A stretch of 11,578 bases of DNA. It comes from an uncultured Bradymonadales bacterium. Its GTDB lineage: Bacteria > Myxococcota_A > Bradymonadia > Bradymonadales > Bradymonadaceae. The stretch is taken from positions 1 through 11,578 of the forward strand of contig CAYUPT010000066.1 of assembly GCA_964446725.1 (NCBI GenBank), in the 5' to 3' direction. Shown one piece after another: positions 121 to 11,578 of this stretch (the first letter of the stretch is position 1; each line of letters starts with the position of its first letter). A program made the position numbers and the translations under genes. The notes under the pieces are model-generated. The model was not told the DNA's origin. It saw nothing but the letters and a program-made list of their open reading frames with translations, and did not search any database.

Positions 121-414
121 TCAACCCTCTTCTTTGCGCACTTCGACCTGCAGAAGCAGGTCTTCGTCGCCGGCGCCCAGAGAGATCGCGTAGTCCAGAT
201 CGCGATTGGCCAATTCATCGTCCAGAATCGGTGCCACGCGATCGGCGAGTTGCTCCCCGGTCTCGAGTTCGTGCTGTGCTTCGCGAAGCGCAATGTAGAT
301 TGCGCCCAGGCTTCCGGCGTCGGCGCGCACGTCGTAGCCACCGAAGGTGGGAACTTCGTCGTTGATGCGAGCTGCGATCTCTTCGCAGAGTTCGTCCAGC
401 GAGGACTGGGCCAT
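121..414 (-). CDS. Small (97 aa) highly acidic hypothetical protein, last gene of the NfeD-flotillin-ATPase operon
   Basis: ATG at 412-414 with AGGAG about 6 nt upstream on the minus strand (ctcAGGAGtacgcATG). TGA stop at 121-123. Codon usage (gac/gaa/ctg/cgc, GC-rich third positions) matches neighbouring genes. It sits 53 nt downstream of the giant ATPase stop (TAG at 468-470). Net charge is strongly negative, about 25 D/E against about 7 K/R. No recognisable domain. A competing plus-strand open frame (1..807) is S/R/C-rich and judged an artefact. Confidence 0.55.
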   Translation of the reverse strand: MAQSSLDELCEEIAARINDEVPTFGGYDVRADAGSLGAIYIALREAQHELETGEQLADRVAPILDDELANRDLDYAISLGAGDEDLLLQVEVRKEEG

Positions 415-467
415 GTGCGTACTCCTGAGAATGAACTATTTGTTCCCGTTGGCTTTCGCTCTCGGTC

Positions 468-3400
468 CTACTTTGAAGTCTCGATATTTTCCAGCCGTTG
501 CAACACCTCGCCCAATTGTTCGGTGGCCTCCGATTCATCGTCGAAGTGCCGATGCATGGCTCTGGCCAGTGGGACCAGAGCGCTTTCGATAAGGCCGAGC
601 TGGGTCTCGAGGACTTCTTGGAGTTTATCCGGCACGTCGCCGCCGACATCGACGCGGACCTCGCCGTTTTGCAACGCCCGGGTCATCTGCTCGACGGCCC
701 GCTCGCTTCCGTCGGACCGGCCATTGGCCTCCGATTCACCGTCGTCTGTCGGCGCCGGCACAGCGACGGAGCGATCGGAGTTGGCCATCTCGGCGAGGGC
801 GTCGTGAATTTCGCCCAGGTGTTGAGACATTTCTCGATGATCCAGGGCCCCCTGGACGTCTTCCACGCGCTGGACCAGCGTCGCCAGCGGTCCGGCGACC
901 CGGCTGACCGGATCGTCGTCGCCGCCGCCCATCATTTTACGTCGCTGGAATTCCTGTTTGACCTCGTCCCAGCGCTGCTGCTCGTCGTCGCTGAGCGTTC
1001 CCCGCAACTCGCCGAGTTTCAACAGGTTGGCCTCGGCGCCGGTGGTCAGCGTCTGAGCTTCGTTCTGGTAGTGGTCGTCGATGACCTCGTCGAGCTCCTC
1101 TTCGTTCATCGCCGGCACGATGCGCTCCGCCATGCTCCCCATATTTCGATAACTTCCCTGGAGCAAAAACGGCGGCTCCGTGCGGTAGTCGTCGTCCTGG
1201 CCCGCGGAGCGGATGTACTCCTGGTTGACCGCCAGTACCACATCGCGGACCTGGATGTACTTTTTGAGGACTTCCACAATCTGGTTGGCCTCCACCGACG
1301 AGTAGTCGTAACTCATCTCCGTCAGTGGAATCTGTTGTCCCTCGGCCATGCGGATAAAGCGATCGACGTCTTCCGGATCGCGCCCCACAAGTTGGGCCGT
1401 CGTCTCGTTGGAGGTCAGGGCGTTTTCGATGTAGCTGCGCTCAAAAGCCTGCCGATTTCCGCTGAGGATGTCACCCAGATTGTAGATATCGGCCCGGTTG
1501 GCCAGCATATCGGGGATGCGAAATCGCTCACCGGACTCCGTATAGGGGTTTCCACCCATGACCACCGAAAAGCGCTTGCCGCGAAGATCGTAGGTCTTGG
1601 ATTCGCCGTTCCAGACGCCGTCGACGCGGCGAGTGGCGTCGCACAGCGAGATAAATTGCTGCAAAAACTCCGGCGATACATGCTGGACGTCATCGACGTA
1701 CAGCATCACGTTATTGGCCATCTCGAAGGCGAAGTTCAATTTCTCCAATTCCTGGCGCGACGTGGCACTCGGGGCCTCCGCCGGGTCCAGCGAGGTGACC
1801 TCGTGGCCCAGCGAGGGGCCGTTGACGCGGACAAACATCACGCCCAGACGGCTGGCGATGTACTCCATGAGCGTCGTCTTGCCGTAACCGGGCGGCGAGA
1901 TCAAAAACAGCAGACCGCTTCGCTCGGCGCGCGCCGAATCACCGGCGGTCCCCATCTGAGTCGCCAGGTTGTCGCCGACGATGTCGAGATACACGTCATT
2001 GATGAGCTGGTTTCGCACAAATCCGCTCATGACCTGGGGTTCCAGGTCGTCGACTTCCAGTCGCTGTGCCTCGCGCTCCACCAATTCGTGGGTTCTTCTT
2101 CGGTATTCGCGCCAGGCCGGGACGTGTTCGTCGATGTACTGGCGAAGCCGTGTCAAAAAGGCGTCGAGGCGCAACTCCATCGCTCCGTCGTCGATCCGTC
2201 CGTGATTGCCGCGAAGCCCCTCGATTTCGATGCGCATGCGCACCTCCGAGGTCTTGCGGCGCAACCGATCGCCGACCAGAAGCAATCCCACCGTCTCCGG
2301 CAGCACGTGGTGGACATCGCCGTCCACATTGCGCTCCACAAATCCCTCTAGCCAGGCCTCGACCAGATCGTAGCCGGAGGCGATATCGGACTCGATATCC
2401 TCCAGGTCCTGCTCGAAGTCGATGCGCTTGCCCTTCTTTTCGAGGGTCTCCATAAAGCGGTCGCGCAACTCCGTGGCCTCGTCGTTGACCACGAAGACCG
2501 GGTCGTCATCGACCAATTCCTGGGCCAGATAGTGGCCGGCCTCGATACAGCGGCTTCGGGTGAAGCGGCCGATCTCTGCGGTGGCCGTCTCGTCGACGGT
2601 GCGGCGAAGTCCCAGTCCGTCGATAAATTCGTCGATGGCCTCTCCCAACTCCCGGCCCAGGCCGTCGAGGGGGCGATCGTGGCCGAAAATTTCGCGCAAT
2701 CTGCCGAGGCTAACGGACTGGCGGGCCCAGCGCTGGCGGCGTTCATCGTCACTGAATGCCCAGAATAGCGACGCCGCCGCCCGGGCCTGGGGCGTAAATC
2801 GAAGCAGCCCCGCCGTCTTGTAGACACTGAGCAGGGCCTCCAGAATCTTTTCGGCGTCCTCGTCGTGCACGCCCCGCTCGTAGCCCTCGTCGTAGCGATC
2901 GGTTCGAGCTTCCTCGATGACCTCTGCCAACCCGCCGTCGTCGCGCGCCTTGTCGCGAAGCTCGTCGATGGTGTAGTCGCCGTCGCCCTCTTCGGCGTCA
3001 AATAAAATCGACGCCGCCAGAAACTCCGCCCGGTAGACGTGCTCCGTCTCCGAGACCAGTGGCTGGTCCCAGAAGGGTCGGGTCTTTTCGTACTCCGGAT
3101 CGTCGACGGGCTCGAAAAACTCGGTGCCCGTGATGTGGAGCATCATCTGGCCGCCGCGGGGAATGGCGGTCATCTCCGGGTCGCCATCGCCGATGCTGAA
3201 TTTGTGGCGACCGAGTTCAATGATGTCGTCGTCATCGCCGTACAGGTCGGCCTTGTCGCGAAGCTCGCGCACCGATTCGTCTTCTACGGAGGCCATCTGC
3301 GTCTGCAGATCGTCTGCGGCGACGCCCTCGCCGAGTTCGCGCAGCTCTTCGATCTGCTCGCGAACCCGCATGATCATCGGATCGGAGGCGAAAAAGGCGT

Positions 3401-5846
3401 TGAGATCGTCGACCGAGTCCTGGGATGCGGCCCGGCGCTTGACGTTTTCCAGGACCCGTTCGGCGGCGTCGACGATGCGCTGGGCCCGGCGCTGGCGCTC
3501 TTCGAGAAGCGTCTGCTTTCGGCTCTCGAAGGTCTCGTAGATCTCCTCGCGCTTGCGAGTCAATTTCTCCATGTAGGTATCGAATTCGCTGAAGCGACTC
3601 TCCAGCTCTTCGAGTTGCGACAACACCCGGCTGAGGCGCTCATCGCAGGCCTCCGGCGTATCGGCCATGCCCAAGGCGCTGTTGATGGTCTGGTCGAGGA
3701 GCTGAAACTGGACGGCGAATTCGGCCTTCCCCTCCTGATCGCGGACCTTCTGGAGGCGGTTTTCGAGCCCGGCGCGCACCTGGTTTTGCCGTCCCAGCAA
3801 GGCGCCGATGTCGTCGAGGATCTCCGTGCGCCGCGTCGGATCGTCGATATCGAGGTTGCTGACCACGTCGGTCAAAAGCGTCAACTGCTCGTTGATCTCC
3901 TCGACATCGTCTAACAGCGCCTCGCCCTCTTTGGTGGTCTCGAATTCGTCGGTGGCTTCCTCGAGTTCATCGAGCCGCTCGTGATACGGCGCCAGGGCGT
4001 CTTCGCCGAGCAGAAAATCGACGGTGGCTGCCGTCAACTCCTCGCTTCGCTCGACGACCTCCTCTTCGAGTTCGTCGAGGCGCTCGTCGTCGATGTAGCG
4101 CACATCGTGCAGTGTGATGAGCCGGCCGCGATGCTCTCTCAGATCGGCCAGCGCGTCGACGAATCGCTCCAGGCGACTCCAGTTGTCGAAGCGAGTGTCG
4201 ACCAGAATATCGCTCTGGCGGTCTTCGGCCTGCTGGAGGCGCTTTCGGGCGTCCTCTTTCATGGCCCGAACTTTGATGAACTCCTCGACGACCAATTCGG
4301 CGGTATCGATGATATCGCCGACCAACTCGTCGATGGCGCCAATTTCGTCTTCGCCGAGCCAGAAATAATTGTCGAGCAGTGTCTGAGCGGACTTGATGAG
4401 CGCCTCGTAGATCGTCTCGCTGGGCTCCAGATCGTCGATCATCCGGCACAGCCCGAGAATATCGGAGATCCCCTGGACCAACTCTGCATTGCCCAGATCG
4501 GTGAGACGGGAGTCGCTCTCTTTGGGCTGTTCGGCGGCGAATTCCTCGTCGTAGTACGGCGTCTCCCAGATCTGCATGGGATGGACCCGCGTCGCCTCGT
4601 CGTTCATCAGTCGAAACACGACCATCTTGCCGTCGCTAAAGATGCTGTAGCCGTGGCAATTGATCGGGTTTTCGATCTCCTTTCGGATCACGTTGTACGA
4701 CAACAGCAGATAGGTCCCCTCCTCCGGGCGATAAAAGACGTACAGATAATCCTCGCCGTTGGCGGAGCGAATCATCTCCTGGAAGCGCATGCCGTCGGTT
4801 TCGACGTCGAACTCGCGCATCGGTCCTTCCGACAGGACATAGCCTCCCGGAAAGATGACGCCCTGATCTTCGGGAAGGGTCACGCAGGACTGGCCGATGG
4901 TATCGATGCGGCGAATATCCTCGGTCAGCGAGTTAAAGACGAAATACCGCCAGTCGTCTTCTCGATAGGGAAGGACCCGAAAGACAATCAGATTGTCGAT
5001 CTGGCAGAACTGGACTTCTGCATCGCCCAGCGACTGGTGGCGATCGTCGACGGGCTCGGAGTGGATGCCTTTGCCGGACTCGGTGTTGTCCTCGACTTTG
5101 ACCGTCAATTGACCGTCCGTGCAGTCGACGAAGACGTCGTCGAGGATACAGACGTGCGGATAGCGCCCCTGGACGTGGTCTTCGCGGGTGACGTCCCGCC
5201 AGTCGAAGTCGTGCTGGCTGGGCGTGCGCAGATCGCGGCGCCCGGAGTTGTCGATGTAATCGACGTTTTCATCGGAATCGAGCGCCCACCGAAGCACCCG
5301 GATATCGTCGAGCGTCGTCCCCGTCTGAAAGACCCCCATCAGGCGATTATCGGTCTTCTGGAGCTGAATCAGACGGACGTCGCTGTAATAGGTGTACAGG
5401 CTCTCAAAATCATCGACGAATTCTTGCTGACCCAGAAAGTTCTCGGAGCGATCTTCGGCGATGGGCTCGATCTGAAATTCATCGCCGTCGGTCTCGAAGG
5501 CGTGAAAGCTGAAGACATCGTCGATATCGGTGGATTTCTTCATGCCGATATAGACGTTGTAGCCAAAGAGCAGGTGGTCATCGATATCGATGATGTCGCG
5601 CGGGATACAGTTGTGCTCGGTGCGCACGACGACCTGTCCGGCCACCGAAAGGTCGGTCCCTCCAAAGATGTCCTGGCGATGATCGTTGAGTTCGTCGGCC
5701 CGGCGCCGAAGTTCGTCGGCCTGATCGGCGAGCCGGTCGCGGATGATGTCGTAGTTGCTTCCCCGGACGTCGGTCTCTTCGCCATCCGGGGCGTTGTCGG
5801 GGGCGGATTGCGTCGATTCCTGTTCGACTGGCGCTTCGGTGGTCAT
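468..5846 (-). CDS. Giant (1792 aa) AAA+ ATPase. Beta-rich N-terminal ~480 aa, ~800 aa acidic helical region, one AAA_5/MoxR-like module near the C-terminus, ~330 aa helical tail
   Basis: Uninterrupted 5.4-kb ORF. ATG at 5844-5846 preceded by GGAG (ccGGAGtgcgccATG). TAG stop at 468-470. Walker A 'LISPPGYGKTTL', Walker B 'NVMLYVDDVQ', and an 'MGGNPYTESGERFRIP-DMLANRADIYNL' block resembling the sensor-1 / Arg / 'ALLDRF' region of MoxR/McrB/dynein-type AAA_5 domains. No obvious transmembrane segment and no VWA MIDAS motif seen. Confidence 0.9.
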   Translation of the reverse strand: MTTEAPVEQESTQSAPDNAPDGEETDVRGSNYDIIRDRLADQADELRRRADELNDHRQDIFGGTDLSVAGQVVVRTEHNCIPRDIIDIDDHLLFGYNVYIGMKKSTDIDDVFSFHAFETDGDEFQIEPIAEDRSENFLGQQEFVDDFESLYTYYSDVRLIQLQKTDNRLMGVFQTGTTLDDIRVLRWALDSDENVDYIDNSGRRDLRTPSQHDFDWRDVTREDHVQGRYPHVCILDDVFVDCTDGQLTVKVEDNTESGKGIHSEPVDDRHQSLGDAEVQFCQIDNLIVFRVLPYREDDWRYFVFNSLTEDIRRIDTIGQSCVTLPEDQGVIFPGGYVLSEGPMREFDVETDGMRFQEMIRSANGEDYLYVFYRPEEGTYLLLSYNVIRKEIENPINCHGYSIFSDGKMVVFRLMNDEATRVHPMQIWETPYYDEEFAAEQPKESDSRLTDLGNAELVQGISDILGLCRMIDDLEPSETIYEALIKSAQTLLDNYFWLGEDEIGAIDELVGDIIDTAELVVEEFIKVRAMKEDARKRLQQAEDRQSDILVDTRFDNWSRLERFVDALADLREHRGRLITLHDVRYIDDERLDELEEEVVERSEELTAATVDFLLGEDALAPYHERLDELEEATDEFETTKEGEALLDDVEEINEQLTLLTDVVSNLDIDDPTRRTEILDDIGALLGRQNQVRAGLENRLQKVRDQEGKAEFAVQFQLLDQTINSALGMADTPEACDERLSRVLSQLEELESRFSEFDTYMEKLTRKREEIYETFESRKQTLLEERQRRAQRIVDAAERVLENVKRRAASQDSVDDLNAFFASDPMIMRVREQIEELRELGEGVAADDLQTQMASVEDESVRELRDKADLYGDDDDIIELGRHKFSIGDGDPEMTAIPRGGQMMLHITGTEFFEPVDDPEYEKTRPFWDQPLVSETEHVYRAEFLAASILFDAEEGDGDYTIDELRDKARDDGGLAEVIEEARTDRYDEGYERGVHDEDAEKILEALLSVYKTAGLLRFTPQARAAASLFWAFSDDERRQRWARQSVSLGRLREIFGHDRPLDGLGRELGEAIDEFIDGLGLRRTVDETATAEIGRFTRSRCIEAGHYLAQELVDDDPVFVVNDEATELRDRFMETLEKKGKRIDFEQDLEDIESDIASGYDLVEAWLEGFVERNVDGDVHHVLPETVGLLLVGDRLRRKTSEVRMRIEIEGLRGNHGRIDDGAMELRLDAFLTRLRQYIDEHVPAWREYRRRTHELVEREAQRLEVDDLEPQVMSGFVRNQLINDVYLDIVGDNLATQMGTAGDSARAERSGLLFLISPPGYGKTTLMEYIASRLGVMFVRVNGPSLGHEVTSLDPAEAPSATSRQELEKLNFAFEMANNVMLYVDDVQHVSPEFLQQFISLCDATRRVDGVWNGESKTYDLRGKRFSVVMGGNPYTESGERFRIPDMLANRADIYNLGDILSGNRQAFERSYIENALTSNETTAQLVGRDPEDVDRFIRMAEGQQIPLTEMSYDYSSVEANQIVEVLKKYIQVRDVVLAVNQEYIRSAGQDDDYRTEPPFLLQGSYRNMGSMAERIVPAMNEEELDEVIDDHYQNEAQTLTTGAEANLLKLGELRGTLSDDEQQRWDEVKQEFQRRKMMGGGDDDPVSRVAGPLATLVQRVEDVQGALDHREMSQHLGEIHDALAEMANSDRSVAVPAPTDDGESEANGRSDGSERAVEQMTRALQNGEVRVDVGGDVPDKLQEVLETQLGLIESALVPLARAMHRHFDDESEATEQLGEVLQRLENIETSK
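1460..1950 (-). other. AAA+ (AAA_5/MoxR-type) ATPase module inside the giant ORF, about residues 1300-1460
   Basis: P-loop SPPGYGKTT encoded at 1872..1898 (checked: revcomp of cttgccgtaacc... gives LLFLISPPGYGK). Walker B MLYVDDVQHV encoded at 1677..1706 (checked by reverse translation). Sensor/Arg block GGNPYTESGERFRIPD at about 1509..1556. Confidence 0.8.
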
Positions 5847-5873
5847 GGCGCACTCCGGGCATCGAAAATCGGC

Positions 5874-5898
5874 GCCGGAGGCTCGGGAAGCCTCCGGC
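5874..5898 (-). promoter_or_regulatory. Intercistronic GC-rich stem-loop between the flotillin stop and the ATPase RBS. Perfect 10-bp stem, 5-nt loop, followed on the minus strand by GCCGATTTTCG
   Basis: Minus-strand RNA GCCGGAGGCU-UCCCG-AGCCUCCGGC, then GCCGAUUUUCGAUGCCCGGAGUGCGCCAUG. The stem ends about 27 nt before the ATPase start codon and just upstream of its GGAG. It could be a partial terminator or attenuator, or an mRNA processing or stability element. Confidence 0.45.
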
Positions 5899-5935
5899 GT
5901 TTGGGGTCCGTATCACGGGCTGTTGGTGCCGAAGG

Positions 5936-8227
5936 CTAGACCGATGCGTCTTCTCCGTCGATCTCGTCGACGGTATCGAGTTCGGTCCCCTGGACCAATT
6001 CGATGAGCTCATCGATCTTTTTGCGCCCCTCGCCCTCGGCGCGGCCTTTGACCTCGTCGAGAATCTTCGACAGCGTCAACTTCGGCGCACCATCGGTGGC
6101 CGCTTCGCCGTTGGCGCCATCGCCAACCGGCAGCGCATTGCCTCCTCCGTTGGCGCCTCCGCCGGAGAATTTGTCGACCACCGAACCCACCAGCCCTTCG
6201 GCGGTGGGACTGGTGTCCATAAAGCCCTCGATCATGTGTCCCGCCGAGATCGACTTCATGAAGTTCTGATAAAAATCGTCGTTGCCGCCGACGATGTTGA
6301 TGTCGGCTTCTGTCATCGCCTTGCCGAGGACGTCGGCCTGAGCCTGGGCGATATCGACGGCGTTTCCGATCTTCTCCATGCCCAGCTTCTCGCCGTACTC
6401 CAGCTGCAGTCGGTATTCCTCGTGCTCCAGTGCGTGGTCGCTGAAGGCGTCGATGGACTTCGCCTTTTCGGCAAGTCCCTTCGCTTCGGCGAGCAGGCGC
6501 TCCTGGATGCCTTCGGCTTCGGCGCGCTTCTTTTCGGCCAAGGCGTGGGCTTCGGCTTCGCCGGCGGCGCGCACGCCATCGGCTTCCGCCTGCTTTTGTT
6601 CGCGAAGAGCGACCGCTTCCGCCGTGCCCTTCTCCTCGGTGATTTTCGCCTCCGCCAGGCCCTCCTGTTCGAGGGCTTCGGCGTTTTGCTTTTTGACGCG
6701 AACCTGAACCATTTCGCGCTCTTCTTCGCCGGCGGCTTCCGCCTTGAGCTGTTCGCGCGTGATTTTGGCCTCCACCAATCCCTCTTTTTCGAGGGCCTGA
6801 GCGTTGGCTTCTTTGACCTCGACCTCGGCGAGTCCGGGAGCGGCCTGTTCGGCCTGCACACCTTCGGCGCGCTGCTTTTTGGCCTTGGCGATCCGTTCGG
6901 CGGCGTCGACTTCTGCATCGGCGCGCGTGATCTGCTCTTTGGCCTCGTGTTCGGCGACCTTTTCTTTGGCCTCCGCCTCTTTGATATCGGCGATCAGCGC
7001 TTCCTGGGCTTCGCCCTCGGCGGCGATGACCGACGCTTCCTTTTCGCGCTCGGCGGCCTTGACGGTGCGCAGTGTCTCGATTTCTTCTTCTTCTTCGGCC
7101 ACCGTCTTTTCGACGGCGATGCGGTCGCGCCGCACCTCGGCAACTTCCTTTTGCTCGGTCTCGACTTCCCGGTCCCGGGAAATGCTCTTGAGCTCGGTCT
7201 CCCGCTCGCGCTCCACGACCTGGAGGTCGCGCTCCTTTTTGACGTTTTCTTCTTCGACGGCCAGCACGCGCTCGCGATTCTTCGTCGCCACTTCCTGCTC
7301 GCGCTGACTTTCGATCTTGCGGATCTCCACTTCCTCCTGGGCTTCGATCTCAGCCTTCTGGGCGCGGGCAATCTCCTTGGCGCGGATCTCTTCTGCCTCC
7401 GCCTTTTGCTGAGCTTCGACGACCGAAATTTCTCGGCGCTGTTTGGCTTCAGCGTCCGCTTCCTGTCGCTCGTACTCCAGAAGCGCCTTGCGGGTCTCCA
7501 GATCGTCACGGCCAATGTCTTTTTTGGCCTTGTTTTCGAGCTCGTTTTTGTGGTGGCGCTTCTCGGCGGTAATTTCGGTGATCTTTTCGAGACCGCGGGC
7601 ATCGAGGACATTCTCCGGATCAAGTTCCCGCGCCGGGGTCTGCTCCAGATAGTCAATGGCGGCGTCTTCCAGAACGTAGCCGTTTAAGTCCTCGCCGATG
7701 ACTTCGATGATCTGTTCGCGAAATTCGACGCGCTGTCCGTACAACTCTTCGAATTCCAACTGCTTACCGACCGTCTTTAAGGCCTCCGAAAATTTCGCGG
7801 TAAACAGCTCTTCCAGTCGGTCCTGGTCGGAGGCGCGAGCACAGCCGACGGCTTCCGCCACCTTTTTGACGTCGCGCTCGGTGCGATTGACCTTGACGAA
7901 GAACGTAACCGTAATGTCGGCGCGAATATTGTCGGCGCAGATCAGACCGTCGTGACCATCTCGGGCAATCTGGATGGTCTTGACCGAGATATCCATCACC
8001 TCGGCGCGGGTGATCACCGGCCAGATAAATCCACCGGTAAAGTGGACATCCGTCTTCCACGGCAGGTTCACGATCAGGACTTCGCCCTGGTCGACCTTCT
8101 TGTAGGCCAGCATGGAACCGATAAACAAAATTACGGCCAAGCCGATAAAGCCGAACACAATCGCCCACACTCCAAGGCCGCTGAACGTGTCGAGTATCCC
8201 ATTGGCATTGGCGAGTACGAAACTCAT
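5936..8227 (-). CDS. Flotillin-like SPFH/band-7 protein (FloT/YqiK family), 763 aa, with an extended Glu/Ala-rich coiled-coil region
   Basis: ATG at 8225-8227 with GAGAGGA about 7 nt upstream. TAG stop at 5936-5938. N-terminal TM helix (GLGVWAIVFGFIGLAVILFIGSMLAY, about 8105..8176). Then an SPFH core (YKKVDQGEVLIVN...HFTGGFIWPVITRAEVMDISVKTIQI...GLICADNIRADITVTFFVKVNRTERDVKKVAEAVG, about 7540..8095) typical of YqiK/FloT. Then about 370 aa of EA/KE-rich heptad-like coiled coil and a flotillin-type C-terminal tail. Confidence 0.92.
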   Translation of the reverse strand: MSFVLANANGILDTFSGLGVWAIVFGFIGLAVILFIGSMLAYKKVDQGEVLIVNLPWKTDVHFTGGFIWPVITRAEVMDISVKTIQIARDGHDGLICADNIRADITVTFFVKVNRTERDVKKVAEAVGCARASDQDRLEELFTAKFSEALKTVGKQLEFEELYGQRVEFREQIIEVIGEDLNGYVLEDAAIDYLEQTPARELDPENVLDARGLEKITEITAEKRHHKNELENKAKKDIGRDDLETRKALLEYERQEADAEAKQRREISVVEAQQKAEAEEIRAKEIARAQKAEIEAQEEVEIRKIESQREQEVATKNRERVLAVEEENVKKERDLQVVERERETELKSISRDREVETEQKEVAEVRRDRIAVEKTVAEEEEEIETLRTVKAAEREKEASVIAAEGEAQEALIADIKEAEAKEKVAEHEAKEQITRADAEVDAAERIAKAKKQRAEGVQAEQAAPGLAEVEVKEANAQALEKEGLVEAKITREQLKAEAAGEEEREMVQVRVKKQNAEALEQEGLAEAKITEEKGTAEAVALREQKQAEADGVRAAGEAEAHALAEKKRAEAEGIQERLLAEAKGLAEKAKSIDAFSDHALEHEEYRLQLEYGEKLGMEKIGNAVDIAQAQADVLGKAMTEADINIVGGNDDFYQNFMKSISAGHMIEGFMDTSPTAEGLVGSVVDKFSGGGANGGGNALPVGDGANGEAATDGAPKLTLSKILDEVKGRAEGEGRKKIDELIELVQGTELDTVDEIDGEDASV
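6638..6877 (-). repeat. In-frame tandem duplication, two units of about 120 nt (40 aa), inside the flotillin coiled coil
   Basis: Nucleotide blocks 6638-6684 and 6758-6804 are near-identical (gtgattttcgcctccgccaggccctcctgttcgagggcttcggcgtt versus gtgattttggcctccaccaatccctctttttcgagggcctgagcgtt), spaced exactly 120 nt. They encode VEVKEANAQALEKEGLVEAKITREQLKAEA versus VRVKKQNAEALEQEGLAEAKITEEKGTAEA. Confidence 0.8.
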
Positions 8228-8284
8228 CGAATCCTCTCATCGCAAAGATTGTGGGTCCTCACTGGAAGCGATGTGCTCCGGCGA

Positions 8285-9064
8285 CTACCCGTGTTTGACT
8301 TTCGCCTTTTGTTCTTCGTGCTCTTCGGCCGCTTCTTCGAGATCTTCAAAATCGATATCTTCTAAAACGATCTTCTGCGATTCGCTTTGAGGTGTGACCT
8401 GCTGGCCCAAGACGGCGTCGAAGGGCTCGACCTCGTAAAGATTGTCGCGGTCATTAAACCCCAGAATCAGCGCCCGGTCGCCGCGCGAAAGGTCGTTGTC
8501 GTGAGGGCAGCGAATCGACAATATCAACTCCGAGCCCTCGATATACACGTTGGCTCGTCCAAACCCGTCGTCGACACGACTCGTCGACACCTCGCAGACC
8601 TGACCGATGAGATGTTCACCGGTCCTGGAACCACTTTCACCGGCGGTCAACGCCTGAAGTGGCGCCATCAACAATCCGGTGATCGGGAAGGCAAATACCG
8701 TCGCCCCCACCAGTAACAGACTGCCGATCATCCAGTTGACGTCCATGATGTACTCCTGGACGCCGAAGACGAATAAGAAACACAGACTCCACCCGGCAAA
8801 TACAAAGGTGGTCCCGAAAATACTCATCGGAACCGTCCCCAGACCAAAAGACGACAGCATCTGGAAGACCGACGATCCGGCCTCTTCGACTCCGGCGCCA
8901 TCGACCTCGACGTCCAGATCAAAGACCTCAAAACCGATACCACCGACGATCATCAGCGTTGCCACAACCATCGCCACGGCGAGCAACACCGTGTAGGCGA
9001 CGGTGGGAAAGCTAAATGCGATGTCGAGAAATTCCTGCATACAGGTGGTCTCGAATTTTGGCAC
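8285..9064 (-). CDS. NfeD-like / YqiJ-family inner-membrane protein: multi-pass N-terminal membrane region plus C-terminal OB-fold. First gene of the operon
   Basis: Hydrophobic N-terminal half (TVAYTVLLAVAMVVATLMIVGGIGF..., FGLGTVPMSIFGTTFVFAGWSLCFLFVFGV, IGSLLLVGATVFAFPITGLLMAP). C-terminal beta-barrel signature 'GEHLIGQVCEVSTSRVDDGFGRANVYIEGSELILSIRCPHDNDLSRGDRALILGFNDRDNLYEVEP' (about 8420..8617) typical of short NfeD (YqiJ) proteins. The stop lies 57 nt before the flotillin start, the classic NfeD-SPFH arrangement. The start is uncertain: GTG at 9062-9064 (longest) or ATG at 9038-9040, neither with a strong RBS. Confidence 0.85.
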   Translation of the reverse strand: MPKFETTCMQEFLDIAFSFPTVAYTVLLAVAMVVATLMIVGGIGFEVFDLDVEVDGAGVEEAGSSVFQMLSSFGLGTVPMSIFGTTFVFAGWSLCFLFVFGVQEYIMDVNWMIGSLLLVGATVFAFPITGLLMAPLQALTAGESGSRTGEHLIGQVCEVSTSRVDDGFGRANVYIEGSELILSIRCPHDNDLSRGDRALILGFNDRDNLYEVEPFDAVLGQQVTPQSESQKIVLEDIDFEDLEEAAEEHEEQKAKVKHG

Positions 9065-9171
9065 ATTGCCGTCGTTACCAGTCCAGTACCACGTGGGGGA
9101 CGTCTACGATTAACCAATGGCGATGCCAAACGCAACCGTTCTGTAAGACGCCGGCTGTCGTGTCGGCTACG

Positions 9172-9205
9172 AAAAAAGGCCCGCCTCCAGCGGGAGACGG
9201 GCCTT
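9172..9205 (-). terminator. Rho-independent terminator downstream of the Cys-rich lipoprotein gene
   Basis: Minus-strand RNA ...AAGGCCCGUCUCCCGCUGGAGGCGGGCCUUUUUUCG. It has an 11-bp GC-rich stem (one mismatch) with a 3-nt loop, followed directly by a U6 tract (A-run 9172-9177 on the plus strand). It lies about 70 nt after the TGA at 9276-9278. Confidence 0.8.
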
Positions 9206-9275
9206 GCGGTGGTCGCGCCCCGGGCTGCAACGAATTAGCGCCCGACGGGCTATCTATGAGCACTGGAACACTGAA

Positions 9276-10556
9276 TCAGGGCATAATGAAGCAAAGGTCG
9301 TCATCGCTGATACAGGTACCCTGACAGCAATATTCATCACTGGCGCACTCAATGCCGCAGCTTCCGCAGTTGTCGGAGTCGCTGTCGGTATCGACGCAGT
9401 CGCCGTCGCAACTGGTGTAGCCGTCCTGGCAATAACACCCCAGAAGACTGATGGGACCGGAGCCGGTGGTGCATTCCTCGGTCTGCACATCACAGCAACT
9501 GGCAGTGGTGCCAAAGCCACATTGCGACTCGCCTTCATCGCAAAAGCAGTCGCCTTCGGAACAAGAGCCCCGATCGCCGCACTCGTAGCCACAGCTTCCA
9601 CAGTGGTCGCTGTCGACACTCAAGTCGACGCAGTCTCCGTCGCAGTTGGTATAACCGGACGCGCAGGTGCAGATACCACTGGTGCAGGTCTCGGTGGAAC
9701 CACAGGATTCGCCGCAGGCGCCACAGTTGGCGTCGCTGGAATCGAGGTCGACGCAGTCTCCGTCGCATTCGACTTCTCCGGCGTCACAGTCGGCCACGCA
9801 ACTTCCACCAGAACAGACATCACCGTCGTCACACTCGTTTCCACAACTTCCGCAGTTGGCGGAACTGCTGTCCAGATCGATGCATTCATCGCCACATCGA
9901 TCTAAGTCGGGGTCGCAACTGAAGTCACAATTTCCATTGACGCAGATGGCTGTCGCCCCGTCCGGCGCGTCGCATTCGATATCGCAGTCTCCACAGTGAT
10001 CGACATTGTCCTCGAAGTCGACACAGTCCTCATCGCATTGCGTGAAACCTTCGGCGCACTCCAGGTCACACTGGCCATCGCTGCACACCGGCGCCCCGGT
10101 CGGCGGATTCGGACAGGCCTCATCACACGCCGAGCAGTGCGAGCTGTCTTCGTCGAGATCGACGCACTCATCGCCACAGCGGGTAAAGTCGGACTCACAT
10201 TCAAAGTCGCAGACGCCCTCATCGCATACTGGCGTCCCATTTTGCGGTGCCTCGCACTGCGTATCGCAGCCCCCGCAAAAATTGGGGTCCATGTCGGTGT
10301 CGACGCACTCGTCGTTACACCATTCCTCGTGCTCATCGCATTCGGTTTCATCGTTATCGTTGTCGTCGTTCTGGTCGCCATCGTTGACATCGTTGACGTC
10401 GCCGACATCGTTGCCGGCATTGGCGTATTCATCCTGGGTGTTGCAGGCCGACAACATCGATATTGCGCCAAAACACAAAACCAGTGCCGCAATGCCGATT
10501 CGATGCAATCCAGCGGCTGGAGTCATCGCTCTCAATTCGATTAATGCTCTACTCAT
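9276..10556 (-). CDS. Secreted lipoprotein with about 8 tandem 40-aa cysteine-rich repeats (Myxococcus-type Cys-rich repeat, TIGR02232-like) behind a D/N-rich acidic linker
   Basis: ATG at 10554-10556 with AGGAG 9 nt upstream (AGGAGAATAGCATCATG). TGA at 9276-9278. Signal peptide with lipobox LSA-C (Cys38, codon 10443-10445). Linker GNDVGDVNDVNDGDQNDDNDNDE. Repeats of the form C-x2-C-x4-6-C-x2-3-C-V-D-x-D-x2-3-[HN]-C-G-x-C-[GD]-x2-C (for example CDFSCDPDLDRCGDECIDLDSSSANCGSCGNEC), about 54 Cys in total. Ends with ...LCFIMP. Confidence 0.85.
   Translation of the reverse strand: MSRALIELRAMTPAAGLHRIGIAALVLCFGAISMLSACNTQDEYANAGNDVGDVNDVNDGDQNDDNDNDETECDEHEEWCNDECVDTDMDPNFCGGCDTQCEAPQNGTPVCDEGVCDFECESDFTRCGDECVDLDEDSSHCSACDEACPNPPTGAPVCSDGQCDLECAEGFTQCDEDCVDFEDNVDHCGDCDIECDAPDGATAICVNGNCDFSCDPDLDRCGDECIDLDSSSANCGSCGNECDDGDVCSGGSCVADCDAGEVECDGDCVDLDSSDANCGACGESCGSTETCTSGICTCASGYTNCDGDCVDLSVDSDHCGSCGYECGDRGSCSEGDCFCDEGESQCGFGTTASCCDVQTEECTTGSGPISLLGCYCQDGYTSCDGDCVDTDSDSDNCGSCGIECASDEYCCQGTCISDDDLCFIMP
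9279..10346 (-). repeat. Periodic intragenic repeats (about 120-123 nt period) underlying the Cys-rich protein repeats
   Basis: Exact 21-mer gtcgacgcagtctccgtcgca at 9624..9644 and 9747..9767 (123 nt apart). Near-copy atcgacgcagtcgccgtcgca at 9390..9410. The motif gtcgacgca (encoding C-V-D on the minus strand) recurs throughout 9390-10330. Confidence 0.75.
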
Positions 10557-10751: not shown

Positions 10752-11578
10752 TCAGTCTCTGCGTCTCCACAACAAGAGTCCGAGCAACACCACCGCCGCG
10801 ACCCCACCACTGCCGCTGGTTCCCACCTGCGAACAGGTCGGCTCGTCTTCGCCGACTCCCGGCGACTCATCGTCGCTGTCATCGTCCTGACTATCGTCAT
10901 CGCCTTCGTCTTCTTCTTCCTCCTCCCCTTCTTCCTCGTCGGGACACAACATCACATCCGTGTGAGGTTCGCTGGTCCAGATGGCATCGGTTCCCGGAAT
11001 CCGAGCACTGATTTCGACTCTGTAAAACCCGTCCTCGAGAGTCTCCGCGAATTCCCGGGGCTCCGGCCCCTCGCCCTCACAGACCGCGTAGATCTGCTCT
11101 TCTCCCCAGCCGACGCGACTGGCTCCGGCGGGCACTGTTTCGTTGACTCCGGCCTGCGGCTCCCAGATATTGGAATTAACCCAGGTCTCAAAGGCAATCG
11201 CCTCGCCCCAGACTTCGGCCTCTTCGGTGGGCTCGAACTCCAGGCGCTGGTAGGCCGCCTCCACGACTTTGGAACACGACTCCTCGCCGTCGCCCTCATG
11301 GCGCACCGGCCCGATGACCGCATTATTGGGCACCCAGATCCCGAGCTCCTCCGGCAGTTCCGCCGGCTCACCGGTCTCAAAGGTCCAGGACGCCGGTTGA
11401 AGCGGACCGCCCTCTCGGCACTCCGGATCGGACTCGAATCGATAGGTTGTATCCTCCATCAATTCTTCGTCGAAAAATATCTCGTAGAGACCATCGCGGT
11501 CCCGCTCGGCGCTGATCTCCACCGCTTCATCGCTGTCATCGACATAGAGTCCAAATTCCGGGTCCTCCAGTGGAGCGA
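10752..11578 (-). CDS. Partial CDS (5' end beyond the window): secreted acidic protein ending in a MYXO-CTERM-like sorting signal
   Basis: The frame is open from the window edge. The track 'start' at 11522 is a GTG, and the codons upstream to 11578 remain in frame (...PLEDPEFGLYVDDSDEAVEISAERD...). TGA at 10752-10754. Poly-acidic spacer EEEGEEEEEDEGDDDSQDDDSDDE. C-terminus PTCSQVGTSGSGGVAAVVLLGLLLWRRRD, that is Cys, Gly/Ser stretch, hydrophobic helix and RRR, as in the MYXO-CTERM tag. No PEP or PGF motif. Confidence 0.75.
   Translation of the reverse strand, partial: APLEDPEFGLYVDDSDEAVEISAERDRDGLYEIFFDEELMEDTTYRFESDPECREGGPLQPASWTFETGEPAELPEELGIWVPNNAVIGPVRHEGDGEESCSKVVEAAYQRLEFEPTEEAEVWGEAIAFETWVNSNIWEPQAGVNETVPAGASRVGWGEEQIYAVCEGEGPEPREFAETLEDGFYRVEISARIPGTDAIWTSEPHTDVMLCPDEEEGEEEEEDEGDDDSQDDDSDDESPGVGEDEPTCSQVGTSGSGGVAAVVLLGLLLWRRRD

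Follow-up and report, generated by a model that had tools for sequence, protein, structure and literature searches.

Does a gene for a giant AAA+ ATPase belong to the same membrane unit as the flotillin gene beside it and, if so, what work would the ATPase do there? The question is raised by a stretch of DNA from an uncultured Bradymonadales bacterium (contig CAYUPT010000066.1), 11,578 nt in length and referred to below as the window, whose parent metagenomic contig is 15,971 bp long (ENA ERZ27265940). Four co-directional open reading frames (ORFs) on its minus strand, separated by intergenic gaps of 57, 89 and 53 nt, encode in order a YqiJ/NfeD-like protein, a flotillin, a soluble AAA_5-type ATPase of 1792 residues and an acidic protein of 97 residues. 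All four are real genes, since each has protein-level orthologues. This layout and these gene identities had been read from the letters of the sequence in an earlier note, and both proved correct. What the window carries is the abbreviated form of a widespread membrane module of three genes, accompanied by a lineage-specific 97-aa gene. The module is best explained, with a probability of roughly 0.6, as a flotillin-dependent, ATP-driven system for envelope stress or membrane remodelling.

The first part of the answer comes from the neighbourhoods of other ATPase genes. The ATPase was sought in one genome per GTDB species, which gave at least 568 confirmed loci, and the best 80 were kept for neighbourhood analysis, with flotillin linkage scored by tblastn using the window proteins. 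Taxa among these 80, as labelled in the records, include Myxococcota, Actinomycetota, Gammaproteobacteria, Betaproteobacteria (Lampropedia), Zetaproteobacteria, Planctomycetota and Acidobacteriota. In 77 of the 80 loci, which are all that have upstream DNA, the ATPase gene is preceded on the same strand by a gene for a flotillin orthologue, with E values from 1e-96 to 0 except for one fragment at a contig edge (3e-63). Three loci are uninformative because their contigs give only 71–408 nt upstream of the match (L039, L051 and L072; L-numbers label the homologous loci compared, and L081 is the window's own parent contig). The linkage of flotillin and ATPase is far beyond chance. The ATPase therefore belongs to the flotillin/NfeD unit, as the earlier note had supposed, and the opposite case that it had envisaged, with orthologues usually found elsewhere, is contradicted by the 77 informative loci.

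All-against-all clustering of the ORFs from the 80 loci and the window recovers exactly three conserved genes, namely those for the YqiJ-like protein (74 loci), the flotillin (78 loci) and the ATPase (78 loci), and the median gaps within this trio are 24 and 57 nt. Across 70 loci the pairwise protein distances of the three are strongly correlated (Pearson 0.94 for flotillin against ATPase), and it follows that the trio is inherited as a unit. The arrangement is also kept in three of the most divergent members, which have 29–33% identity in the propeller. In two of these, genes of about 212 and about 647 aa lie directly upstream of the ATPase gene, while in the third, which is on a short contig, a truncated flotillin gene occupies this position. 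The flotillin was confirmed in the divergent loci L090 (E=2e-57, with a YqiJ-like gene at 98.1% probability) and L092 (E=4e-46). In addition, the trio is found on a Streptomyces linear plasmid, on pQBR103 of Pseudomonas fluorescens SBW25, on a Deinococcus megaplasmid and on a Hymenobacter plasmid. In a wider search the ATPase appeared in only 13 of 72,556 plasmid records, and most of these are megaplasmids, chromids or chromosomes that seem to have been mislabelled.

In a few loci, inserts of kilobase length part the flotillin gene from that of the ATPase, and those of L066 and L080 are secondary. At L080 the insert consists of two tandem PD-(D/E)XK transposase-like genes (8006-9906), and at L066 it consists of an NYN-domain gene with a nucleotidyltransferase/HepT pair (7674-10007); both flanking genes are kept in each. 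At L057 a gap of 6.4 kb between flotillin and ATPase holds unrelated ORFs.

The earlier note had regarded this arrangement as undescribed, which was wrong. Ravi et al. (2024, mSystems 9:e00847-23, PMC11237479; preprint 2020) list the exact gene order in a purely computational study of comparative genomics. In its passages on these operons, the order given is CesT/Tir, PspA, YqiJ/YuaF, Band-7/flotillin and a protein that combines beta-propeller, coiled coil and AAA+ domain, and some operons also have a PLD gene. The protein with three transmembrane (TM) segments is prototyped there by YqiJ/YuaF, "abbreviated" operons without the CesT/Tir-PspA dyad are described as more widely distributed, and the supplement shows the same gene order as the window trio. 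Since the dyad is absent from both the window and its 16-kb contig, the window represents the abbreviated form. The general functional conclusion drawn in those passages is the same as the one favoured here. The arrangement was thus catalogued in 2020/2024 and is not new, and the window is a new instance of a computationally described operon family. As for the possibility, also raised in the earlier note, that the unit had already been characterised, this holds for computational cataloguing and not for experiment. The literature search found no experimental work on any member of the operon family and nothing on DUF3686, PF12458, DUF7902 or "DNA repair ATPase" together with flotillin, and the ATPase is not mentioned in Hinderhofer 2009 or in a 2026 paper on SPFH proteins of Pseudomonas aeruginosa.

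The flotillin of the window has an N-terminal TM anchor (residues ~14–43), an SPFH/Band_7 domain, a long coiled coil rich in Glu, Ala and Lys, and a variable C-terminal tail. The full-length protein has no match in Pfam, even at E=10, and the coiled coil had to be trimmed off; residues 1–209 scanned alone match Band_7/SPFH (PF01145) at E=1.6e-13, with 51.5 bits against a cut-off of 23.6. The C-terminal Flot domain of Pfam finds no match in the protein, and a sequence search against solved structures also returned none for it. Alignment with E. coli YqiK gives 29% identity over 483 residues (E=5e-31), and the window protein is classified by homology as a YqiK-type flotillin. ATPase-linked flotillins from different phyla are 39–70% identical to it, and this excess over the 29% to YqiK suggests a distinct subfamily. 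Within their C-terminal part, residues ~580–680 are conserved among these ATPase-linked proteins. The single N-terminal TM segment is followed by KK, which suggests that the SPFH domain faces the cytoplasm.

The product of the gene upstream has three TM-like segments and an acidic loop, and its C-terminal domain is rich in beta structure. The window protein has no direct Pfam match to NfeD, YqiJ_N or YqiJ_OB, even at E=10, and its sequence search against solved structures gave a single match, unrelated and insignificant (E=2). A profile of 32 orthologues, however, aligns with E. coli YqiJ in hhalign at 94.7% probability (E=5.6e-8) over TM2–TM3 and the beta domain. Further, weaker indications point the same way: YqiJ_N is matched by 2 of the 32 orthologues, YuaF (2k14) aligns in the expected place, though only at E=0.32, the Deinococcus orthologue has a weak NfeD match (18.5 bits, under the cut-off of 29.1), and PGAP annotates the Hymenobacter orthologue as DUF1449. 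Together, these comparisons identify a predicted inner-membrane protein of YqiJ/NfeD type, encoded upstream of an SPFH gene. The domain assignments of the earlier note thus stood in hidden Markov model searches directly for AAA_5, only on the N-terminal 209 aa for Band_7, and through the orthologue profile, not directly, for NfeD/YqiJ.

The ATPase has no TM segment and is therefore predicted to be soluble. Its homologues number more than 3,000 matches and are conserved over the full length; that of L001, a metagenome-assembled genome labelled "Myxococcales", is 77% identical, and among named organisms the closest are in Bradymonadaceae (63%) and Persicimonas caeni (58%). In Pfam it matches DUF3686 (2.3e-189, residues 45–495) and DUF7902 (1.8e-25), and AAA, AAA_5 and AAA_22 all exceed their cut-offs at residues ~1309–1436 (27.9 bits against a cut-off of 22 for AAA_5). 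The protein was modelled with AlphaFold2 from 56-sequence alignments in two overlapping halves, residues 1–1150 and 1101–1792, with a mean predicted local distance difference test score (pLDDT) of 81.8 and 78.8, respectively, and values above 90 in the AAA+ core and lid. The N-terminal half contains a beta-propeller, long helical bundles of ~400 residues in all, a small beta domain (residues 876–913) and a helical domain (residues 939–1150). Foldseek gives the propeller no neighbours beyond propellers of a generic kind (TMt up to 0.40). When this domain by itself was the query of an exhaustive search, 682 clusters at 50% identity were found, and in every full-length member, of ~1,550–2,040 aa, it is N-terminal.

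The catalytic module departs from the AAA+ canon at one position. The Walker A motif PPGYGKTT (G1320–T1324, including K1323) is invariant in alignments of 15 and 56 sequences, as are a sensor-1 candidate (N1433) and an Arg-finger candidate (R1451). The Walker B motif LYVDD (D1385–D1386; window 1689-1694, minus strand) is invariant in the 56 sequences, in which the canonical DE does not occur. Throughout the DUF3686 ATPase family the catalytic Glu is replaced by Asp, and the motif reads hhhhDD followed by xQH. Such a DD Walker B may make hydrolysis slow or subject to regulation. In the AlphaFold2 model a beta-hairpin (residues 1407–1420, with strands 1407–1412 and 1415–1420) precedes the sensor-1 strand, which places the AAA+ module outside the classical Cdc48/FtsH/Vps4 clade. 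The best fold matches are the MoxR proteins NorQ and CbbQ (TMt 0.56–0.60), while full-length RuvB chains and MCM reach at most 0.44 and dynein is also poorer. The helix-2 insert is not clearly resolved in the model, and the region of the NP-x-E...R motif is MoxR-like by eye. The module is accordingly modelled as MoxR/AAA_5-like, within the pre-sensor-1 hairpin superclade.

The family is named "DNA repair ATPase" at NCBI, although some JGI records call its members "MoxR-like ATPase" or "soluble cytochrome b562". No experimental backing was found for any of these names. The DNA repair name derives from the Pfam description of DUF3686 and from NCBI annotation. RuvB does appear among the fold matches and, at the level of the P-loop, among the NCBIfam matches, but the latter are sub-threshold (19.5 bits against a cut-off of 282) and cover only ~45 residues around the P-loop. 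The search against solved structures likewise returned P-loop matches only, the domain scan of the ATPase found no nuclease or DNA-binding domain, nor a protease or any other effector domain, the fold is closer to MoxR than to RuvB, and no paper supporting the name was found. The gene is, moreover, obligatorily linked to two membrane proteins. The label has no support in this analysis; it is probably an annotation artefact, and it probably misleads annotation.

The signals around the four genes (Table 1) bear on whether they are expressed together. The YqiJ/NfeD-like gene more probably starts at ATG 9040 than at GTG 9064. The intrinsic-terminator-like hairpin at 9205-9176 closes the preceding Cys-rich gene, so the operon begins after ~9176, which marks its 5′ boundary. 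The block that resembles a promoter has a similar counterpart, TTGCGC-N18-TAATCG, upstream of the trio in L083, an 82%-identical relative; a consensus promoter scan did not call it and found nothing useful near the operon. A sigma-54-like (-24/-12) element, TGGCAT-N5-TTGG (9114-9128, minus strand), was also considered upstream of the YqiJ-like gene, but it is not conserved in L083 or L084 and was therefore rejected as probably due to chance. No RNA family in Rfam matched the window. Sequences like Shine-Dalgarno sites, GAGAGG, CGGAG and AGGAG, precede the starts of the flotillin, ATPase and 97-aa genes, respectively, and no canonical terminator follows the 97-aa gene.

Table 1. Features of the operon and of the encoded ATPase, in window coordinates
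Feature	Position	Strand	Size or residues	Basis or remarks
Intrinsic-terminator-like hairpin	9176..9205	-	13 bp stem, 9 GC pairs	T-run; ends upstream Cys-rich gene
Candidate promoter TTGCGT-N17-TAATCG	9107..9135	-		~70 nt upstream of ATG 9040; by eye; low confidence
YqiJ/NfeD-like gene	ORF 8285-9064 (GTG start); likelier 8285..9040 (ATG)	-	259 aa; likelier 251 aa	Parent-contig gene call
YqiK-type flotillin gene	5936..8227	-	763 aa	
Hairpin in flotillin-ATPase gap	5873..5899	-	11-12 bp stem	GC-rich; -25 kcal/mol; z=-4.5
Giant ATPase gene	468..5846	-	1792 aa	
Beta-propeller, core of DUF3686	4557..5654	-	ATPase residues ~65-430	AlphaFold2 block, pLDDT mostly 80-94
Long helices/coiled-coil bundles, including DUF7902	3252..4529	-	ATPase residues ~440-865	Pfam, AlphaFold2
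AAA+ core and lid	927..1949	-	ATPase residues ~1300-1640	Invariant columns, AlphaFold2, fold comparison
97-aa acidic protein gene	121..414	-	97 aa	Orthologues, conserved motifs

The three internal gaps contain no terminator comparable to the canonical one at 9205-9176. The stable hairpin between the flotillin and ATPase genes is followed only by ATTTT, and its end lies ~27 nt before the ATPase ATG. At the same position L083 has a canonical terminator shape, with a GC stem and TTTTT, and L084 has no hairpin. The window's hairpin leaves no space for a promoter behind it, and expression of the ATPase must therefore depend on read-through. The hairpin is probably an attenuator or an element of mRNA stability and not a full insulator, and it would lower ATPase expression and thus set a high ratio of flotillin to ATPase. 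Full insulation of the genes by separate promoters or a terminator would, according to the earlier note, have refuted its reading, but the internal gaps show no promoter that would insulate them; the hairpin qualifies the single-operon reading without refuting it, and one simple, uniform transcript cannot be taken for granted.

The fourth gene fares differently. Its product is an acidic protein (24.7% Asp+Glu against 7.2% Lys+Arg), predicted to be cytoplasmic, and has no family match. Orthologues of equal length and 44–67% identity lie directly after the ATPase gene in L001, L083 and L084, and in L001 and L084 their start overlaps the ATPase stop by 4 nt. These keep the motifs RADAG..G.xYxALR and S.G.G..DLLLQ. 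Only three database relatives were found besides those on related contigs, the gene accompanies only ATPases with at least about 76% identity to that of the window, and other lineages have no conserved positional equivalent downstream of the ATPase. The 97-aa gene is therefore a real but clade-specific accessory that stands outside the conserved unit, and its inclusion in that unit by the earlier note does not hold. As a separate observation, a basic-poor ORF of ~183–191 aa overlaps the ATPase stop in L022, L025, L040 and L041.

What the module may do is suggested by the genes that extend it in other lineages. In 17 of the 80 loci, all gammaproteobacterial, genes for DUF2170 (YjfI-type, CesT/Tir-like) and PspA/IM30 lie directly upstream of the trio, and in 9 loci a PLD gene lies downstream. 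The Hymenobacter plasmid has the order "chaperone Tir", PspA/IM30, DUF1449, a 722-aa protein (the flotillin) and ATPase. On pQBR103 (86413-103605) genes of the DUF2491, DUF350, DUF1190 and glutathionylspermidine-synthase families lie directly upstream of the trio, and these are presumably the YjfK/L/M/C families of the E. coli yjf operon. Among divergent members, the ATPase gene of L090 is followed immediately by a gene for TelA (toxic anion resistance; 11001-12221), and in another a PspA gene is ~6 kb away. As an aside, the L090 contig also carries an FtsH gene ~6 kb upstream of the ATPase gene. The membrane-stress role put forward in the earlier note fits the PspA, CesT/Tir and PLD extensions of these other lineages.

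The favoured mechanism can be set out as follows. Flotillin and YqiJ would form an oligomeric scaffold or cage on the inner membrane, facing the cytoplasm. The ATPase would oligomerise and dock on this scaffold through its propeller and coiled coil, and would spend ATP on remodelling the scaffold itself, PspA-type polymers or clients held there, by assembly, disassembly or extraction. Such remodelling would serve envelope stress or membrane maintenance, with the hairpin ahead of the ATPase gene keeping the enzyme scarcer than the flotillin, and with the 97-aa protein as a putative local adaptor or regulator.

Several points weigh against this explanation. Neither a PspA gene nor a CesT/Tir or PLD gene was found on the 16-kb parent contig. 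Contact between ATPase and flotillin is suggested by gene linkage only, and co-inheritance in an operon would by itself also yield the correlation of protein distances. The action may run in either direction, with the scaffold as the target of the ATPase or simply as its housing. The Walker B motif is DD and not DE in all members, which casts doubt on the rate of hydrolysis. The VWA-domain partner that is usual for MoxR ATPases is not encoded in the operon, on the 16-kb contig or among the conserved neighbours. The hairpin could partly uncouple expression of the flotillin and ATPase genes. Finally, the patchy distribution of the family, with some members on megaplasmids, fits an accessory role and not core housekeeping.

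A bolder proposal is that the ATPase is a dedicated, Vps4-like remodeller of the flotillin/SPFH scaffold and of co-operonic PspA polymers, with the 97-aa protein, in the clade of the window, as its adaptor or inhibitor. This is possible and is offered only tentatively. If true, it would mean a previously uncharacterised membrane-repair machine present across at least eight phyla.

A doubtful but substantial rival, close to the model of the earlier note, resembles HflK/C-FtsH, in which an SPFH cage encloses the AAA+ protease FtsH. Here the flotillin/YqiJ cage would only recruit, enclose or gate the ATPase, the scaffold itself would not be remodelled, and the real substrates would be other membrane or periplasm-bound proteins or lipids. 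The linkage data support this reading and the favoured module equally. The propeller could bind clients other than flotillin, and the PLD and polyamine genes of the extended operons hint at other targets. Conversely, neither a protease domain nor any other effector domain is present in the ATPase, and the lumen of a cage would have little room for six subunits of 1792 aa, each with long coiled coils. The present data do not separate this reading from the flotillin-dependent remodelling module.

It is quite improbable that the trio is an anti-phage or conflict system that detects infection at the membrane and responds with membrane damage, for example through PLD. Such a system would suit the patchy spread of the family across phyla and its presence on megaplasmids (pQBR103, for example), the PLD gene that comes with the trio in 9 loci, and the toxin-antitoxin and transposase genes inserted within two loci. 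Nevertheless, PADLOC returned only weak LmuB coiled-coil matches (E ~1e-4) in ATPase residues ~440–865, no homologue of the ATPase was found in 50,697 phage records, the 80 loci show no recurrent defence-gene neighbours, and most of them have no effector domain. The recurrent partners are instead PspA and CesT/Tir genes of envelope stress. That the large protein is a DNA repair ATPase merely adjoining membrane genes is, on the evidence given with its name above, scarcely credible.

The function of bacterial flotillins is still debated, and their deletion often gives little phenotype. A subfamily of them that is always accompanied by a giant ATPase of its own, and in some lineages by PspA as well, would be a biochemical handle on flotillin function, as it supplies an enzymatic partner, catalytic residues that can be mutated and tractable hosts. 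Candidate hosts are P. fluorescens SBW25 with plasmid pQBR103, Proteus mirabilis, Vibrio campbellii, Myxococcus, Corallococcus and Streptomyces.

The remaining genes around the operon differ in character. Upstream, a 426-aa protein (9276-10556, minus strand) is extremely rich in Cys and Asp and contains five Stig1-type repeats (PF04885, 2.9e-27); its N-terminal hydrophobic segment is followed by Cys, as in lipoproteins. The gene is not conserved beside the operon in other lineages, and a similar gene occurs elsewhere on the L001 contig. Further upstream, a very acidic protein of 256 aa (10752-11522, minus strand; 27% Asp+Glu) contains a poly-Glu/Asp tract and, at its C-terminus, one TM segment, with no family match. 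Beyond position 1 of the window, the parent contig encodes a 690-aa protein (L081:13558-15630), separated from the 97-aa gene by 719 nt, which has no Pfam match over threshold and only a sub-threshold match to PUA_3.

How the window relates to known systems can now be stated. It shares with the operons of Ravi et al. (PMC11237479) the gene order and the domain architectures of the three core genes. The full form described there has CesT/Tir, PspA and sometimes PLD, none of which is on the window's 16-kb contig, and the passages on these operons do not mention the clade-specific 97-aa downstream gene. E. coli YqiJ-YqiK and B. subtilis YuaF-FloT likewise combine a 3-TM NfeD-like protein with a following SPFH/coiled-coil flotillin anchored at its N-terminus. 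Unlike the window, E. coli yqiJ-yqiK is followed by sib/ibs genes and not by an ATPase gene, which had no match in E. coli genomes.

HflK/C-FtsH offers the likeness of an SPFH assembly functionally coupled to an AAA+ machine, a coupling that gene linkage suggests for the window. FtsH is a membrane-anchored protease of the classical clade, whereas the window ATPase is soluble, MoxR-like by its model and without a protease domain. HflK/C face the periplasm, while the window flotillin would face the cytoplasm. The MoxR ATPases (NorQ/NorD, CbbQ/CbbO and RavA/ViaA) include the best fold matches to the AAA+ module and usually have a VWA partner, which the window operon does not encode. The window ATPase is also about six times larger, has propeller and coiled-coil extensions, and carries DD instead of DE in Walker B. 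Vps4/ESCRT-III and PspF/PspA are similar in that an AAA+ protein is genomically coupled, in some lineages, to PspA, a member of the ESCRT-III family. However, the window ATPase is not a classical-clade AAA protein and has neither the MIT domain nor the architecture of a sigma-54 activator. Moreover, PspA accompanies ATPases of this type in only 17 of 80 loci, whereas their universal partner is flotillin.

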